Shown piece after piece: positions 2,793 to 29,645 of a stretch of DNA of 39,137 nt (within the stretch, counting starts at the first letter, position 1; each line of letters starts with the position of its first letter). This DNA is from a virus. Where the stretch lies: IMG/VR virus record IMGVR_UViG_3300048599_000025; one strand, 5' to 3'. The notes under the pieces are model-generated. The model was not told the DNA's origin and ran no database searches. It saw nothing but the letters and a program-made list of their open reading frames with translations. The translations under genes were made by a program, and so were the position numbers.

Positions 2793-3035
2793 ATGACGGT
2801 AAAAGAGCATCTTGCTATAGGCAACGCATTTGCAGAGGGACTTATGAAGGGGATTGCTGAACGCGATCCAGAGGCTTCATGCGCATTCCGCGAGATATAC
2901 CTTCGTGCAACTAAAGAAGCATATTGTGCCGGGGTAATTCAAATGTCAGACGATGAGTTTATGGAGTTCGCTAAAAAGCTCTGGCGCAAGAGGCCGGGAA
3001 ACGAATACATACACAAAAGGCGGGTGAGTAAATGA
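2793..3035 (+). CDS. Hypothetical protein
   Basis: 80 aa, AAGGGAGG RBS upstream. Confidence 0.5.
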   Translation: MTVKEHLAIGNAFAEGLMKGIAERDPEASCAFREIYLRATKEAYCAGVIQMSDDEFMEFAKKLWRKRPGNEYIHKRRVSK

Positions 3036-3472
3036 CAGCAAAAGAACTGCTCAAAGCGTGTCGATATGCAGTACAGGAAATCGCCGCCATACAGCGCCAG
3101 ATGGATGCAACTTGCTTTCCTGTATTCGGTGGATGCAAAGGGGTAATTATCACCGACATGCCGCACGGCACGAACGACCCGACAACGGCAGTCAGGCAGG
3201 CGCTGGATCACTACGAGGAACTTCTAGAGCAAGCCAAGCAGGAAAAGGCGGGGTTGCTGGAAGAGTTTGAACGCATGATGAAAACGGTGGATGACACATT
3301 CGCCCGCGTCATACTGCGGCACTATTACGGGGCGGGCCGTACCGACGAACAGATTGCCATAGAAATGGACAAGGCAAGAGAGACGGTCACAAGGCGCAGG
3401 AACGCGGCGGAAAACTTTTTGCAAAATACTTTTATACCGTCACAAAATGTCATAGCTAATCACAGAGTATAA
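3032..3472 (+). CDS. Late-gene transcriptional regulator (RinA/ArpU/DUF1492-like, sigma-70 region-4-type HTH)
   Basis: 146 aa. Has the ...ITDMPHGTNDP... segment and the C-terminal HTH RVILRHYYGAGRTDEQIAIEMDKARETVTRRRNAAENFL. It is the last early gene before the packaging/late module. Confidence 0.7.
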   Translation: MTAKELLKACRYAVQEIAAIQRQMDATCFPVFGGCKGVIITDMPHGTNDPTTAVRQALDHYEELLEQAKQEKAGLLEEFERMMKTVDDTFARVILRHYYGAGRTDEQIAIEMDKARETVTRRRNAAENFLQNTFIPSQNVIANHRV

Positions 3473-3490
3473 AGTTTATACTGTATCTAT

Positions 3491-3523
3491 AAAGGGCTAC
3501 CCAATGCGGGCGGCCCTTTTGTT
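3491..3523 (+). terminator. Putative intrinsic terminator after the late regulator
   Basis: AAAGGGC (3491-3497) pairs with GCCCTTT (3513-3519), with an inner CCC/GGG extension, followed by TTTTGTT. Confidence 0.45.
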
Positions 3524-3534
3524 ATAGGTGTGAA

Positions 3535-3772
3535 TGAGCGGCACGCCATCCCTGCCAGCGGGGAGTTAAAACAAACGCTGGAGTTGGCCTGATTAGGGCA
3601 GCGAAAACTATTCCCGCTCACGCCATCCCGCCGCGATTTATATCCCAGCGGCGGGGTTTGCGTTCGTACGCTGTCGCGCCATACAGCGTTCACCAAGCCA
3701 GCGTAGCTTAATTAGACAGAGCGCCGGGTTGATCGCCGGAGGATGCAGGATTAGGGCCTGCCGCTGGTTTTT
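3535..3772 (+). other. Hairpin-dense, repeat-containing non-coding element (candidate ncRNA, leader, or packaging/regulatory DNA site)
   Basis: Stems: GAGCGG/CCGCTC (3535/3614), CCAGCG/CGCTGG (3554/3575), CCCGCCGC/GCGGCGGG (3627/3648), ACGCTGT/ACAGCGT (3668/3683). Repeated words: CACGCCATCCC (3542, 3619) and GATTAGGGC (3591, 3749). No plausible ORF. Confidence 0.5.
3697..3768 (+). ncRNA. 72-nt tRNA-like cloverleaf (non-canonical; not called as a functional tRNA)
   Basis: Acceptor stem GCCAGCG/CGCTGGT, D-arm GCTT-AATTAGACA-GAGC, 4-bp CCGG/CCGG stem with the 8-nt loop GTTGATCG, 5-nt variable region, T-arm GCAGG-ATTAGGG-CCTGC, then TTTT. It lacks the D-loop GG and the T-loop TTC. Confidence 0.3.
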
Positions 3773-3891
3773 GCTTTGTAACTATTTCGGGGTGATGTGC
3801 GATATCCTCCTTTCGCGCATCGGGTGCGTCACATTTATGGTGTGGTGGGGCCGTGACGTGTTGATACAGGAGGGACGCAAGGAGGGCGTTG

Positions 3892-5274
3892 ATGCAAGAG
3901 AACAAATACCGGGCCGAAGCTGAACGCCTGACGCTTGACGAGGGTTTTTCGTGGCAAGAGGCGGCAGATGAATTGAACAGGCTTTACCCGGAAGAGAAAT
4001 TCACATACAACCGTGTCCGCGGCATCGTCCGAAAGGGTGACCGCTGGAAGGCTGGAGAACGCTCAAAGCGCAAGCCGAGCGAGAACAAGGCCAGGGAGCG
4101 CAAACCGGAAGAATGCCAGGGACACGGTGAGCGAGAGTATCCAAAAAGCGACAAGATCAACAAGGACGGCTCCCGAGAATCGTTCCGCATACTGGAGATT
4201 TACAAGAATCACATTTACACGCCGGACGAGCTGCTGAAGCTCCACGGCTTTGATCCCGCTGAAGAATGGGAGCTAATCGACGCCAAAAGCAACATCTGGA
4301 ACGGCACGACTGGCAAACAACGCAACAATGAGCTTGTGGAGTTGCGGCAAAGCACAGTCAGAGCAAAGCCAAAGAAGTCAGGCATCACTTTTTCCGACGT
4401 TGACCACTACTTTGACACAAAGCAATTTACCCGTAGCAAGCCAATTGTAAACCCGCTTCAGTACGACCCCAACGGCGAAGTGCTGGAGATAGATGCGCCG
4501 GACCTGCACAATGGACTATTATCGTGGGAGCCTGAAACGGGCGCAGATTACGATATCCACATTGCCAAAGAGCGTTTCTTACAGGTCATGTATGACATCA
4601 AGGAAAGGTGTGTCGACAAGAAGTACAAGAAGATTGCGTTTGCCACATTGGGCGATCTTCTTCATGTGGACAACGATGTACAGACCACCACCAAAGGCAC
4701 GCCGCAGCAGGTGGACGGCAGAATTGCAAAAATCTTTGATATCACATGCGATATGCTTATCGAGGGCATTGACATACTGGAGAGCATTGCGCCAGTTGAG
4801 GTCATATACCTTCCTGGTAACCATGACCGCGTTACGGGGTACATGCTGCTCAAGGCCATTTCTCTTGCGTACCGCTTTGACAAAAACATCACTTTTGACA
4901 CCACGCCAAACCCGCAAAAACACCGCTTGTGGGGCAAGGTGCTGGTTGGCCTTGTGCATGGCGATATAGCGAACAAAAATATGGGAACGTGGTTGCAGGA
5001 CAGGGCACGGAAAGATTACGGCCAAGCGCAGTTCGTAGAAGTTCACGCCGGACACATCCACACTGAGAAGCGCAAGGAGATATACACAATACGCCAGCAA
5101 GAGGACACAACCACAGAGGACATTGGCGGTATCGTGATACGGTATCTGCCAACCATCAGCAATTCATCGTATTGGGAGCACCTGCAAGGCTATCCTGCGG
5201 GGTGCAAGACGATGATGTGCTTTGTGTGGAATGAGCAGACAGGGCTTAGGGAGATGTGGTACAGCAATGTGTAA
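3892..5274 (+). CDS. HTH-like N-terminal domain fused to a calcineurin-type metallophosphoesterase (Mre11/SbcD-like superfamily)
   Basis: ATG 3892 (TTG 3889 is also in frame) after GGAGGG. Metallophosphoesterase motifs DLH, GDLLHVDN, GNHD, VHGD and GHIH. The N-terminal 60 aa are helical, followed by a basic linker. Confidence 0.7.
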   Translation: MQENKYRAEAERLTLDEGFSWQEAADELNRLYPEEKFTYNRVRGIVRKGDRWKAGERSKRKPSENKARERKPEECQGHGEREYPKSDKINKDGSRESFRILEIYKNHIYTPDELLKLHGFDPAEEWELIDAKSNIWNGTTGKQRNNELVELRQSTVRAKPKKSGITFSDVDHYFDTKQFTRSKPIVNPLQYDPNGEVLEIDAPDLHNGLLSWEPETGADYDIHIAKERFLQVMYDIKERCVDKKYKKIAFATLGDLLHVDNDVQTTTKGTPQQVDGRIAKIFDITCDMLIEGIDILESIAPVEVIYLPGNHDRVTGYMLLKAISLAYRFDKNITFDTTPNPQKHRLWGKVLVGLVHGDIANKNMGTWLQDRARKDYGQAQFVEVHAGHIHTEKRKEIYTIRQQEDTTTEDIGGIVIRYLPTISNSSYWEHLQGYPAGCKTMMCFVWNEQTGLREMWYSNV

Positions 5275-5488
5275 CACAATAAAGAACAAGCCAATTCAGG
5301 TAACAAAGTTTGGCGCGGTTGTTTGGTCAAACCAAGAAATGGACGAACTGCGAAAGACTGAATGCCTCTGTAAAAATTGCGCCAAGATGCGAAAATGCTT
5401 TACTGCAAGCAGACTATATGAAATCTGTGTATGTGAGGATATGGCCATGATGATAACGCGATGCAAGCAATATGAGGCGGTGATCTGA
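5267..5488 (+). CDS. Cys-rich hypothetical protein
   Basis: ATG 5267 overlaps the upstream stop (ATGTGTAA). 73 aa containing CLCKNC...CVCED...C. Confidence 0.45.
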   Translation: MCNTIKNKPIQVTKFGAVVWSNQEMDELRKTECLCKNCAKMRKCFTASRLYEICVCEDMAMMITRCKQYEAVI

Positions 5489-6106: not shown

Positions 6107-6188
6107 ATATTTTAAAGGGGAACGAACCAACAGGGTAAATCTCCAACACGATATATTCCCCCATCAACTTTGACAAGGAGACTTTACA

Positions 6189-26613: not shown

Positions 26614-27747
26614 TTAAATCTTTTCTATTATCGAGCGTATTGATTCTAGATCGGCAGATTGATAATATTTGGTCATTTCAGCGCTTGCGTGGCCCATAAG
26701 CGCCGCCTTGTCCGTGTCGGAACCCTGTACGTTTTTCATGAGGTTTGCAAAAGTGTGGCGGCAGCAGTAAGGTACGTACAGCGCCTTCTCTCCTTTTTCT
26801 GGTACCTTCTGAATTCCCAGTTCTGCCATTGCCGGATAAAATAACTCGTCTCTAAAATAAGAGTCTGTCATTCTGCTCCCGTCTGGTCTTGAAAAGATAT
26901 ACGGATTTGCCTTTAAAACCAACTCGCGAATAATTGGCGAAATCTTTGGAGAAACAGGAATCGGTCTATCAGTGCCGGCTTCTGTCTTAAACCCGCCTAT
27001 GAGTGTATTTTCTGTGGGATCATATGCGTCACGTTGAAGTTCTAACATTTCTCCTGGCCTGAACCCGGTATGGATCATGCAGTATATATAATCAGCTCCA
27101 TAAACTATGCCTACAGCTTTTCGTATCGTTTCTACCTGCTCCGCTGAAAAGGCGGGGCGCGTGGTTTTTACTCCGTCCCCAGTGTTTAGATATTGCGCAT
27201 AGTTCATATCGCTGATGTGGCGCGGGAGAGCATATTTGTATAGCAACGTCCCTAGAGTCTTCATATTCTCATGTGTACGCTTCCCTCTTTGGCAATTATC
27301 CATGCACTCCTGCAAATCATCCAGACCTATGCTTATAAACGGCATGTTAAATACATCCGCATAGTAATTCTTTGCGGCTCGGTAGCACCTCATTGTGCTT
27401 TCTTCAATACTGTTTTCGTGAGACGTACACCATGCATCGTAAACCTGCAAGAAAGTAAATTTTGCAACCTTATCCGCTTTTGTTTGTGCAAGAGTTGGTA
27501 TGTAAGCAAGCGCCGCCTTTTTTGTTGCAAATCCTCCCTTTCTTCGCTTTACATGTCCTTCTCCTTGAGGCACAGATATGGCTGCCGTCCATGTCTTTCC
27601 TCTTTTGTACGCTGAGCCTGTCCCATTTGCACGAGTACGTGGGTTATTTGCTTTATCTTCATCTTTTGCTTTTAATACCTTTTTCGCGCAATAACAGCAC
27701 AAAACAGAATCTTCAGGTATGCTTTTGTTGCACTTTTGACAAATCAT
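26614..27747 (-). CDS. int: Tyrosine integrase with an N-terminal zinc ribbon
   Basis: 377 aa. N-terminal CQKC...CCYC. C-terminal catalytic-domain motifs HTGFRPGE, CRHTFANL and LMGHASAEMTKYY. Confidence 0.9.
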   Translation of the reverse strand: MICQKCNKSIPEDSVLCCYCAKKVLKAKDEDKANNPRTRANGTGSAYKRGKTWTAAISVPQGEGHVKRRKGGFATKKAALAYIPTLAQTKADKVAKFTFLQVYDAWCTSHENSIEESTMRCYRAAKNYYADVFNMPFISIGLDDLQECMDNCQRGKRTHENMKTLGTLLYKYALPRHISDMNYAQYLNTGDGVKTTRPAFSAEQVETIRKAVGIVYGADYIYCMIHTGFRPGEMLELQRDAYDPTENTLIGGFKTEAGTDRPIPVSPKISPIIRELVLKANPYIFSRPDGSRMTDSYFRDELFYPAMAELGIQKVPEKGEKALYVPYCCRHTFANLMKNVQGSDTDKAALMGHASAEMTKYYQSADLESIRSIIEKI

Positions 27748-27862: not shown

Positions 27863-28021
27863 ATGATAAAGCGTAAAACCGGGATGCGGGAAATTATTTC
27901 CGCCTATAGGAAGCTGGATCATAAAAAAAGAGAAATGTTCATCAGACACCTCGAAGCCCTTCAAGAACCTGCAAGGCAAGTTTCTTCTTCTCAGCAGAAA
28001 GGCCGTTATACAGTTCAATGA
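27863..28021 (+). CDS. Candidate 52-aa ORF convergent with, and overlapping, the repressor 3' end
   Basis: ATG 27863, 8 nt after AAGGGA. MIKRKTGMREIISAYRKLDHKKREMFIRHLEALQEP.... The last 80 nt are antisense to the repressor gene. Confidence 0.3.
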   Translation: MIKRKTGMREIISAYRKLDHKKREMFIRHLEALQEPARQVSSSQQKGRYTVQ

Positions 28022-28265
28022 GTATTTTTGTTTCATCGTCTGATATTGATTTGATTGCACTGGTTGCATCACCTTCTATAATGTCGCTTTTCTTTAGACC
28101 GAAGTGGTCAGCTATTCTTTGTATGTAGCCCATTCGTGGGATTTTAGTACCCAACTCCCAGTTGGAAACCGCCTGCCCGGATACCCCCGCTATATCTGCT
28201 ATATCCGCCTGTGTCATCCCCATAGATTCCCGAAGCTTCTTAATGTTGTCCCCAATTACGTTCAT
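27942..28265 (-). CDS. CI-like repressor (XRE-family HTH, no S24 peptidase domain)
   Basis: Internal ATG at 28265-28263 after GGGTGG. 107 aa. IKKLRESMGMTQADIADIAGVSGQAVSNWELG. Divergent from the cro-like gene. Confidence 0.8.
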   Translation of the reverse strand: MNVIGDNIKKLRESMGMTQADIADIAGVSGQAVSNWELGTKIPRMGYIQRIADHFGLKKSDIIEGDATSAIKSISDDETKILIELYNGLSAEKKKLALQVLEGLRGV

Positions 28266-28305
28266 ATGTACCACCCTTTCATTATAGTGTGTTTTTTCTT
28301 GCACA

Positions 28306-28334
28306 ATAATACACCATAAGTTTAAAGAATGCAA
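28306..28334 (-). promoter_or_regulatory. Candidate repressor-maintenance promoter
   Basis: On the - strand: TTGCAT (28334-28329), 17-nt spacer, TATTAT (28311-28306). Confidence 0.4.
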
Positions 28335-28662: not shown

Positions 28663-28872
28663 ATGAGCATTTCAGACATCGAAAAGTTGGAGGATCTAAC
28701 TATCACTCCACAAGTCGCATCCCTGGTACTTGGGTGTGATCCGCAAAACATCAGAGATCAGGCACATTCAAACCCTTCAATGCTTGGTTTCCCAGTAATC
28801 GTGCACGGAAGCCGCGTGAAGATTCCCCGCATACCTTTTATAAAGTATTTGACCGGGAAGGAGAACCGATGA
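28663..28872 (+). CDS. Excisionase-type (HTH_17/MerR-like) DNA-binding protein
   Basis: 69 aa. ITPQVASLVLGCDPQNIR...GFPVI..GSRVKIPRIPFIKYL resembles the Xis/AlpA-type fold. Confidence 0.45.
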   Translation: MSISDIEKLEDLTITPQVASLVLGCDPQNIRDQAHSNPSMLGFPVIVHGSRVKIPRIPFIKYLTGKENR

Positions 28873-29645
28873 ACGAACTCAAGATATTCGAGAACCCCGC
28901 ATTTGGAAGCGTCCGCACCGTACTAAAGGACAATGAACCGTGGTTTGTATCCTCTGATGTATGCAAGGTGCTGGGCCTTGAGCAAGTAAGCCGCGCAATG
29001 GATCGCATTGATCCAGACGAGAGGGGGTTATTAGAAGTAACCCACCCCCAAAGCGAAGGAAAAACAATGCTGGTCAATGGCGTAAATGAGTACGGGCTCT
29101 ACGCTTTGGTTCTTGCTTCCACAAAAGATGAAGCGAAAGCCTTCAAGCGCTGGATCACCCATGAAGTCATCCCCGACATCCGGCGCCACGGCATGTACGC
29201 CACCGCCGATACCGTGGACAAGCTGCTGAACGATCCCGACACGGCAATCAAGATGCTACAGCAGTACAAGGAAGAAAAGGCAAAACGGGTAGCACTGGAG
29301 GCCCAGGCAGAGCAGGACAAGCCCAAAGTGCTCTTCGCAGACAGCGTTGCCGCTTCCCGGCACTCCATCCTGATCGGCGAACTGGCGAAGCTGCTCAAGC
29401 AGAACGGCATCCAGATCGGGCAAAACAGGCTGTTCCAAGACTTGCGCAACGACGGTTACCTTTGCAAGGGCGGTGAGCGCTACAACCTCCCGACACAGCG
29501 CAGCATGGAAGCCGGCTGGTTCGATCTCAAGGAAACCACCATCAACAGGCCCGACGGCGCGGTGATGGTCACCAGGACCACGAAAGTTACCGGTCGCGGG
29601 CAAATCTACTTCATCAATCGGTACTTGGGACAAAAGGAAGCGTAA
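28869..29645 (+). CDS. Antirepressor (Bro-N domain plus KilA-C/ANT domain)
   Basis: 258 aa. Bro-N-type LKIFENPAFGSVRTVLKDNEPWFVSSDVCKVLG. C-terminal KilAC-like ...VLFADSVAASRHSILIGELAKLLKQNGIQIGQNRLF.... Confidence 0.85.
   Translation: MNELKIFENPAFGSVRTVLKDNEPWFVSSDVCKVLGLEQVSRAMDRIDPDERGLLEVTHPQSEGKTMLVNGVNEYGLYALVLASTKDEAKAFKRWITHEVIPDIRRHGMYATADTVDKLLNDPDTAIKMLQQYKEEKAKRVALEAQAEQDKPKVLFADSVAASRHSILIGELAKLLKQNGIQIGQNRLFQDLRNDGYLCKGGERYNLPTQRSMEAGWFDLKETTINRPDGAVMVTRTTKVTGRGQIYFINRYLGQKEA

Follow-up and report, generated by a model that had tools for sequence, protein, structure and literature searches.

Between positions 3473 and 3891 of the IMG/VR virus record IMGVR_UViG_3300048599_000025, a gap of 419 bases separates the gene of a late transcriptional activator of the Ltr superfamily from a gene for a 460-aa protein of the Mre11/SbcD-like exonuclease family. 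The whole stretch of DNA analysed, 39,137 nucleotides (nt) in length, is called the window throughout the text. The gap carries a terminator (T1), two tRNA-like elements (X and W3), two hairpins (H1 and H2) and, in front of the exonuclease-like gene, a leader with two further hairpins (H3 and H4). All features are listed in Table 1. A first-pass annotation made from the sequence alone had described the region as a gene-free island. This was confirmed, as 3473-3888 is, within the gene train on the + strand of the window, the longest stretch free of any + strand open reading frame (ORF) of 70 aa or more. Further + strand non-coding stretches of 380-930 nt near 25.7-27.3 kb correspond to the minus-strand lysogeny module. 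In our judgement the gap is rather likely a composite of three unrelated modules, namely the terminator, tRNA-derived relics in a variable slot, and a two-hairpin leader controlling translation. It should be taken as these three parts and not as one exotic RNA, and among them the leader alone is a motif without earlier description.

Table 1. Features of the gap and its flanking genes, with positions in the window.
Feature	Position	Strand	Description	Basis or use
Late transcriptional activator gene	3032-3472	+	Ltr superfamily (DUF1492 / sigma-70 region 4-like)	anchor for finding relatives
T1	3491-3523	+	intrinsic terminator: A-run, 12-bp imperfect stem, T-run; bidirectional in shape	
X	3535-3620	+	rearranged partial paralogue of W3	direct repeats
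H1	3627-3655	+	8-bp G+C hairpin, CCCGCCGC 3627-3634 / GCGGCGGG 3648-3655, 13-nt A+T-rich loop	
H2	3668-3689	+	7-bp hairpin, ACGCTGT 3668-3674 / ACAGCGT 3683-3689, 8-nt loop	
W3	3697-3769	+	tRNA-derived cloverleaf, running into TTTTT tract to 3772	Rfam, fold
Leader module	3783-3891	+	last ~110 nt of the gap	
5' box of the leader	3783-3792	+	UAUUUCGGGG, consensus UUUyGGGG	conserved in window, L450, L029, L090
H3	3793-3822	+	10-bp hairpin, loop with CCUCCU (3806-3811), anti-Shine-Dalgarno-like	
H4	3826-3859	+	7-bp hairpin, conserved 20-nt G-rich loop AUUUAUGGUGUGGUGGGGCC	
Tandem Shine-Dalgarno sites	3863-3894	+	GGAGG 3869-3873 and 3881-3885, ATG 3892	
460-aa gene	ATG at 3892	+	Mre11/SbcD-like exonuclease family, phrog_704	

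A two-hairpin leader with covarying stems

All hairpins and reused words listed in the first-pass annotation were found in the sequence, with two stems offset by 1. The outer stem is formed by TGAGCGG 3535-3541 / CCGCTCA 3614-3620, in which GAGCGG begins at 3536 instead of 3535, and the inner stem by CCAGCG 3555-3560 / CGCTGG 3576-3581, for which the earlier coordinates were 1 too low. Comparing folding energies with those of shuffled sequences, z-scores of -1.73 on the + strand and -3.10 on the - strand were obtained for the whole region. Among the individual elements, T1 (-2.6), the 8-bp hairpin H1 (-4.05), the 7-bp hairpin H2 (-2.07) and the hairpin at 3793-3820 (-3.74) gave lower values than 3535-3620 (-0.98), the cloverleaf (-1.10) and the hairpin at 3826-3858 (-0.45). 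Taken alone, thermodynamics gives mixed evidence for structure in the gap. As folding energy by itself was unimpressive, the decisive evidence had to come from relatives. This comparison shows that T1, H1, the cloverleaf, H3 and H4 are real conserved features.

Homologues of the activator were found to be rare, with three recovered by a single-sequence search and a few more by profile. The loci L450/L451 (61% activator identity) show the synteny of the window with a 357-nt gap; the gene order in L450 is activator, gap, 453-aa exonuclease homologue, HNH, TerS and TerL. In L090 (65%) the activator is followed by 436 nt without a called gene, in L087/L088/L089 (63%) by a 168-nt gap and then TerS, and in L449 (62%) by 1.1 kb with small minus-strand genes, HNH and TerS.

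For the leader, a covariance model was derived from the window sequence only and run against 374 kb of related loci. L450 was found with 75 bits (E 4e-19) and a further locus, L029, with 33 bits (E 9e-7). MAFFT combined with RNAalifold misaligned the leader hairpins and was not used; the single-sequence covariance model realigned them. In the resulting three-sequence alignment 98% of the cells are paired and 11 of the 17 pairs are changed on both sides, values reached by none of 500 shuffles, although this alignment is fitted by the model and holds three sequences only, so that its numbers lean towards structure. Controls with slid partners gave at most 57% paired cells and at most 3 pairs changed on both sides. 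The compensatory changes in homologues which the first-pass annotation had proposed to look for were thus found for the leader.

Both hairpins follow the same pattern. In H3 the stem sequences differ among four phages around a conserved loop. The arms AUGUGCGA/UCGCGCAU (window), CCGGUGCG/CGCGUCGG (L450) and GGCUGC/GCAGCU (L090) all close a loop with CCUCCUU. In the three-sequence alignment, 7 of the 10 pairs of H3 are changed on both sides and 100% of the cells are paired. The arms of H4 read CGUCAC/GUGACG in the window, UGCUCC/GGAGCA in L450, CGCCGC/GCGGCG in L029 and GUCGC/GCGAC in L090; 4 of the 7 pairs carry changes in both partners, and the paired cells amount to 95%. The Shine-Dalgarno (SD) region is kept in L450 as UUGAUACAGGAGG..GCAAAGGAGG. 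The overall order of UUUyGGGG box, H3, H4, UUGAUACAGGAGG..GCAAGGAGG and start codon is conserved in L450 and weaker in L090.

In L029, ~10 nt separate the exonuclease homologue's stop codon from the start of the motif, and an HNH endonuclease gene lies directly downstream. This leaves no room for a terminator and a promoter and therefore argues for an action at the RNA level. As the leader precedes the HNH gene there, it is not tied to the exonuclease gene. What it marks is the beginning of the packaging gene block, and it can be intercistronic.

In the ensemble prediction, each of the three complete copies pairs its CCUCCU with a GGAGG further downstream, the first site being used in the window and the second in L450. 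In the ensemble of the window the second GGAGG is left 93% unpaired. We propose that H3 and H4 would form first during transcription and that the anti-SD loop would pair with one of the GGAGG sites, in competition with the formation of both hairpins. The leader would in this way set or switch ribosome access and with it the translation rate of the downstream gene. H3 and H4 are themselves also under selection, because their stems covary. From these predictions we infer that the leader probably gates translation by sequestering the ribosome-binding site. On the opposite strand the CCUCCUU loop reads AAGGAGG, and no minus-strand start codon follows this word in any copy. Two candidates from a descriptor search for hairpins with a CCTCCT loop, L349 and L413, were rejected as minus-strand ribosome-binding sites followed by ATG.

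Several points weigh against this interpretation. By prediction, the long-range anti-SD:SD state is favoured over the state with local H3 and H4 by 3-10 kcal/mol, and the two-hairpin form may be transient. Two to four homologous sequences were available per module, with the covariation alignment fitted to the structure. Applied to the syntenic place in L090, the rebuilt model gave 17.1 bits (E 2.6e-4) with the 3' end cut off. In 1.2 Mb of unrelated viral contigs its best hit reached 17.9 bits (E 0.18). The score of L090 is therefore at background level, and its membership is based on position and manual inspection. Finally, a scan of the + strand found no sigma-70-like site, and no promoter could be placed for the downstream operon.

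A search of Rfam 15 at E<=10 over 2800-4300, suggested by the first-pass annotation, yielded tRNA and a chance ftsZ-DE hit only, and no family matching the leader. Of the leader or processive-antitermination RNA considered at first pass, the leader stood, as the conserved element at 3783-3891 with its covarying stems; the antitermination part did not, with no Rfam match and no put-, EAR- or LoaP-like features. A possible likeness of the words AUUAGGG and GGUGG to T-box RNAs was dropped, as Rfam gives no T-box hit.

That the hairpins act at the DNA level, as cos/pac sites for the terminase or as operators for the Ltr activator or the helix-turn-helix (HTH)-containing exonuclease-like protein, we regard as improbable. 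The late promoter must lie somewhere in the gap, the binding block of Ltr activators lies just beyond their own gene and the promoter on which they act is intergenic (PMC3753634), and the T1 region is 84% identical between the window and L090, compared with ~70% for the activator gene. However, the arms of H3 and H4 vary and their loops are fixed, where a dimeric DNA-binding protein would give the opposite pattern. Moreover, the leader occurs before different genes, and in L029 it is intercistronic, directly after a stop codon. The DNA site for the terminase or the HTH-metallophosphoesterase suggested by the first-pass annotation found no support, since varying arms around fixed loops are the pattern of an RNA; in L029 the motif furthermore lies downstream of the metallophosphoesterase gene, before the HNH gene. 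Candidate control sites are the T-rich/UUUyGGGG box at 3766-3792, which is conserved, and the T1 region with its strong conservation. In HNH-dependent cos phages, cos usually lies in the interval from the HNH gene to TerS. By analogy, cos would be expected in the HNH/TerS gap of the window (6107-6188).

Terminator and tRNA-derived elements behind the activator gene

T1 lies directly after the activator stop codon. Its arms, AAAGGGCTACCC / GGGCGGCCCTTT and then TTTT, form a stem-loop at 3491-3519 plus UUUU(G)UU with an energy of -16.8 kcal/mol. The terminator-like hairpin reported at first pass thus has the make-up of an intrinsic terminator, and its conservation behind the activator gene extends to the relatives. 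In L090 it is 84% identical over 49 nt, and an equivalent hairpin with U-tract follows the activator gene in L087, L449 and L450; all five relatives with the activator have one. A simple terminator scanner did not list T1 due to the internal stem mismatch. T1 closes the operon including the Ltr-type activator gene. It is of a known type, and its arrangement has already been described for the Ltr activator superfamily, where a terminator at this position after the activator gene is documented (PMC3753634). Comparing window 3473-3535 with L090:630-690, the block with the terminator is 84% identical and the activator gene ~70%. As this block is more conserved than the activator gene, it may in our opinion also hold the activator's binding site. 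In staphylococcal phages the Ltr binding block lies at the post-activator position (PMC3753634).

The slot behind the terminator (3535-3772) is a variable cargo site. In L087 the whole gap comprises only 168 nt, and the 1.1 kb of L449 holds other genes. There, ~1.1 kb after the activator terminator (L449:690-1810) contain two minus-strand ORFs of small size and an HNH-like gene, with TerS following, content that identifies the slot as a hotspot for unrelated cargo. No match was obtained by blastn of 3000-5300 against 50,697 phage records. Homologues of the downstream gene are numerous; 85 loci carrying one were collected, 44 of them with enough upstream sequence. BLAST and nhmmer searches of the gap against the 85 loci returned the window's own copy only. 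The gap before the homologue is mostly <100 nt long, and none of the 44 shares the sequence of the window gap; most of the 419 nt is therefore lineage-specific. Pattern scans of IMG/VR for the terminator word, H1, words from the anticodon arm, the loop of H4 and the 3' box yielded nothing or chance matches, and the candidates L092/L093, L452 and hundreds of G+C-rich hairpins were discarded as such.

In the slot of the window, W3 [the cloverleaf] scored 37.3 bits with the Rfam tRNA model RF00005 (gathering score 29, E 7.5e-6). The Rfam run over the whole window in gathering mode missed it because of speed filters. Its minimum-energy fold is a cloverleaf with 7/7 pairs in the acceptor, 4/4 in the D, 4/5 in the anticodon and 5/5 in the T stem, the fifth anticodon pair being G-G. 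By BLAST it is similar to tRNA-His and tRNA-Gln genes of phage tRNA clusters, and it is homologous to two elements in the relatives described below, L090_B and the tRNA(UCA) of L450. Its loops depart from those of a regular tRNA. The anticodon loop UUGAUC (6 nt) is closed by the G-G, which is equivalent to 8 nt on a 4-bp stem, and lacks the U33-NNN-R37 geometry. The T loop reads AUUAGGG instead of UUCRANY, with T54, C56 and A58 missing, and the D loop AAUUAGACA is without G18G19. CCA is not encoded, the discriminator being followed by UUUU. ARAGORN at default settings found no tRNA genes in the window; at a 90% threshold it calls W3 'tRNA-?(ga)' with a 6-nt loop and a two-base 'anticodon'. From these features W3 is probably a non-decoding relic, whose acceptor stem together with the U-run probably acts as a second terminator (T2). 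The stable small RNA considered at first pass is borne out in part by the tRNA origin of W3, which resembles a degenerate copy and not a dedicated small RNA.

X is made up of an outer stem of 7 bp, an inner hairpin of 6 bp with a loop of 15 nt, and a hairpin that resembles a T arm and has the loop AUUAGGG of W3; a D arm is missing. It is connected to W3 by a 24-nt direct repeat (3576-3599 versus 3734-3757, 75% identity, containing GATTAGGGC), which extends from the 3' strand of the anticodon stem through the variable region to the 5' strand of the T stem and the T loop. A second direct repeat, CACGCCATCCC (11 nt), occurs at 3542 inside X and again at 3619, starting at the 3' end of X. The fold of X is no better than that of shuffles (z -0.98), and Rfam gave no tRNA hit for it at E<=10. 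Two long-range complementarities (3537-3547/3755-3765 and 3645-3655/3757-3767) were considered as parts of an attenuator. They are not conserved in L090 and follow from the paralogy of the word GCCAGCG/CGCTGG, and the idea was abandoned.

The arms of H1 and its loop length of 13 nt are identical in L090:767-795, where the loop sequence differs and the flanks cannot be aligned. Because arms and loop length are conserved between unrelated flanks, H1 is a real element of the cassette; it may serve for processing or pausing between the tRNA-like units. The hairpin between the tRNA-like units of L090 is unrelated in sequence to H2, for which no homologue was identified.

In the relatives the slot holds other copies. 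The 247-kb contig of L450 carries an apparently intact tRNA (L450:4426-4498, Rfam 57 bits) right after the terminator. Its anticodon stem is regular, with 5 bp, and closes the loop CUUCAAA, giving the anticodon UCA, which would read UGA; its acceptor end is Gly-like (G1-C72/C2-G71/G3-C70/U73) and CCA is encoded. With its default settings ARAGORN misses this tRNA; at the 90% threshold the call is 'SeC(tca)'. L090 contains two degenerate cloverleaves, A and B. L090_A has a 7-bp acceptor stem and aberrant loops. L090_B reaches 27.3 bits with the Rfam tRNA model, with an 11-nt anticodon loop and 4/7 acceptor pairs. It has GCGCCGG...GCCGGAG, the T stem and UCCA in common with the L450 tRNA, and its 3' end resembles tRNA-Gly (BLAST). 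We suggest that this lineage acquired a small phage tRNA cassette in the slot after the terminator, and that the copies in the window would have lost their decoding features and become decaying relics, with the L450 tRNA(UCA) as the better-preserved form. W3 and X are most likely such decaying relics, and they are probably still transcribed.

The main rival to the relic interpretation is a non-decoding structural role. W3, X and both L090 cloverleaves would then be functional tRNA mimics, serving as processing signals for RNase P/RNase Z or as decoys for tRNA-targeting defence nucleases of the host; as processing signals they would set the early transcript apart from the late mRNA or determine its ends. 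We consider mimicry, including this use, unlikely. Nevertheless, a number of observations do not fit well with decaying relics. Of 20 standard stem pairs W3 has kept 19, the exception being the one G-G, although conserved loop positions have diverged. Compared with L090_B and the L450 tRNA, several positions of its acceptor stem have changed, all of them compensated by the partner base. The unusual T loop AUUAGGG is common to X and W3, whose T stems differ in two pairs, both of them compensated. In addition, the anticodon arms of the three non-canonical copies are aberrant (16, 18 and 21 nt), and their top halves are recognisable. The compensation in W3 and X looks unlike simple neutral decay and leaves room for a structural function. 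On the other hand, L090_B has kept just 4/7 acceptor pairs, X lacks a D arm and folds no better than shuffles, and the damage affects different parts in each copy, as decay predicts. The slot is empty or filled with unrelated genes in close relatives, and no tRNA repair or tRNA-targeting gene was found nearby. Even less likely appears a combined reading, in which the cloverleaves are a small family of such mimics, derived from a phage UGA-reading tRNA and retained for their shape, and the leader, with a loop mimicking the 16S rRNA 3' end, is a new class of riboregulator for translation of the packaging operon.

It is very improbable that W3 is a working, unusual decoding tRNA, with an expanded or contracted anticodon loop causing frameshifting or stop suppression for the late genes. 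W3 does score above the Rfam gathering threshold, its L450 counterpart has the anticodon UCA, and phage suppressor tRNAs can be non-canonical and lie near late genes (bioRxiv 10.1101/2021.08.26.457843). However, the 6- or 8-nt anticodon loop is without the U33/R37 arrangement, the T and D loops lack T54, C56 and A58 and G18G19, respectively, and the molecule has no CCA and runs into a U-tract. The genes of the window are intact in the standard code, with TGA as an ordinary stop in 6 of 23. Recoding of a stop codon was accordingly rejected for the window, and also for L450, where TGA ends 9 of the 13 genes checked.

A coding function of the gap is hardly credible. ORFs of 64-69 codons exist at 3729-3923 (+), 3487-3696 (-) and 3708-3905 (-), but all three start with TTG and overlap the tRNA-like and hairpin elements. 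Using tblastx against the homologous gaps, similarly weak hits were obtained in all six frames without a preferred frame.

Genomic setting

The annotation of both flanking genes in the first-pass annotation was essentially right, with an activator of the Ltr/RinA superfamily upstream and a protein of the Mre11/SbcD-like exonuclease family (phrog_704) downstream. The activator gave sub-threshold Pfam matches to DUF1492 (18.6 bits) and Sigma70_r4, and matched PHROG phrog_36 'transcriptional regulator' with E 1.6e-13. PF04545, PF05263 and PF07374 are present on its distant homologues. The Ltr activator family has been described before (PMC3753634). A sequence search with the 460-aa protein gave no match among solved structures.

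The 460-aa gene is followed by DUF3310, HNH, TerS, TerL, portal, protease, capsid, tail and endolysin-like genes. The lysogeny side comprises an integrase (26614-27747, minus), a CI-like repressor (27942-28334, minus) and an antirepressor (28869-29645). Replication and early genes precede the activator, and early genes are found again beyond the antirepressor. The window looks like a circularly permuted, complete genome of a temperate siphovirus type. It is a prophage, since this DNA also lies inside a 443-kb bacterial contig. An attP site or tRNA-gene fragment in the gap was rejected, with the integrase 23 kb away and no repeat shared between the gap and the rest of the window; the phage's attachment site was not located.

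A second gap (5275-5487, 213 nt; L450:6071-6436, 366 nt) lies between the exonuclease-like and the DUF3310/HNH genes. In the window it is covered only by a weak 88-codon TTG ORF without Pfam hit, and the leader motif is absent from it. In L450, a region called coding (L450:3047-3121) matched the fluoride riboswitch model with 24.8 bits (gathering score 34), probably by chance.

Comparison with known systems

Leaders that sequester the SD sequence are known from ROSE/fourU RNA thermometers and from the expression platforms of translational riboswitches. As in these, a pyrimidine-rich anti-SD precedes the ribosome-binding site and is able to pair with it, and local and long-range structures are alternatives to each other. 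The leader differs in that the anti-SD is placed in a hairpin loop and that a second hairpin with a conserved G-rich loop and tandem SD sites are added. HK022 put RNA is a processive antitermination element of two hairpins with characteristic bulges, which acts on RNA polymerase. Two adjacent hairpins in the leader of a late or early phage operon are common to both, whereas no sequence or model match to put was found and the conserved loops are here complementary to the SD region. This complementarity suggests for the leader a role in translation and not in antitermination. It would represent an undescribed but conventional-looking type of SD-sequestering leader, with comparative support that is good, though thin.

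The general arrangement resembles the intergenic region between ltr (RinA/ArpU/LtrB/LtrC) and the late genes (terS) of Gram-positive phages (PMC3753634, PMC3152322), with an activator, its own terminator and a control region for packaging and late genes. Here, however, ~240 nt of tRNA-derived cargo lie between terminator and control region, and the first downstream gene is exonuclease-like instead of terS. A covarying two-hairpin leader is not described for that region; activator-binding repeats, in turn, were not identified in the window.

With phage tRNA genes, pseudogenes and fragments (RF00005; fragments are discussed in PMC9897764), W3 has in common the cloverleaf, the Rfam score, sequence similarity and an intact-looking syntenic counterpart. 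In contrast to phage tRNA genes, its anticodon, T and D loops are non-canonical and CCA is lacking. Unlike tRNA fragments at att sites it does not lie beside an integrase, and for a simple tRNA pseudogene its still paired stems are unusual. The suppressor tRNAs of recoded phages, whose code-change machinery has been reported just upstream of the late genes (bioRxiv 10.1101/2021.08.26.457843), are matched by the tRNA(UCA) of L450 just upstream of the late gene block. However, neither the window nor L450 is recoded, and the copy in the window cannot read codons normally.

The interest of the gap lies in the leader motif and in tRNA-derived genes that standard finders miss. As ARAGORN at default settings missed both W3 and the L450 tRNA(UCA), tRNA-derived genes of prophages can escape such tools, which matters for surveys of phage suppressor tRNAs. 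The leader, in turn, could show how some Clostridia-type prophages tune the translation of their packaging operon, downstream of Ltr-type activation.

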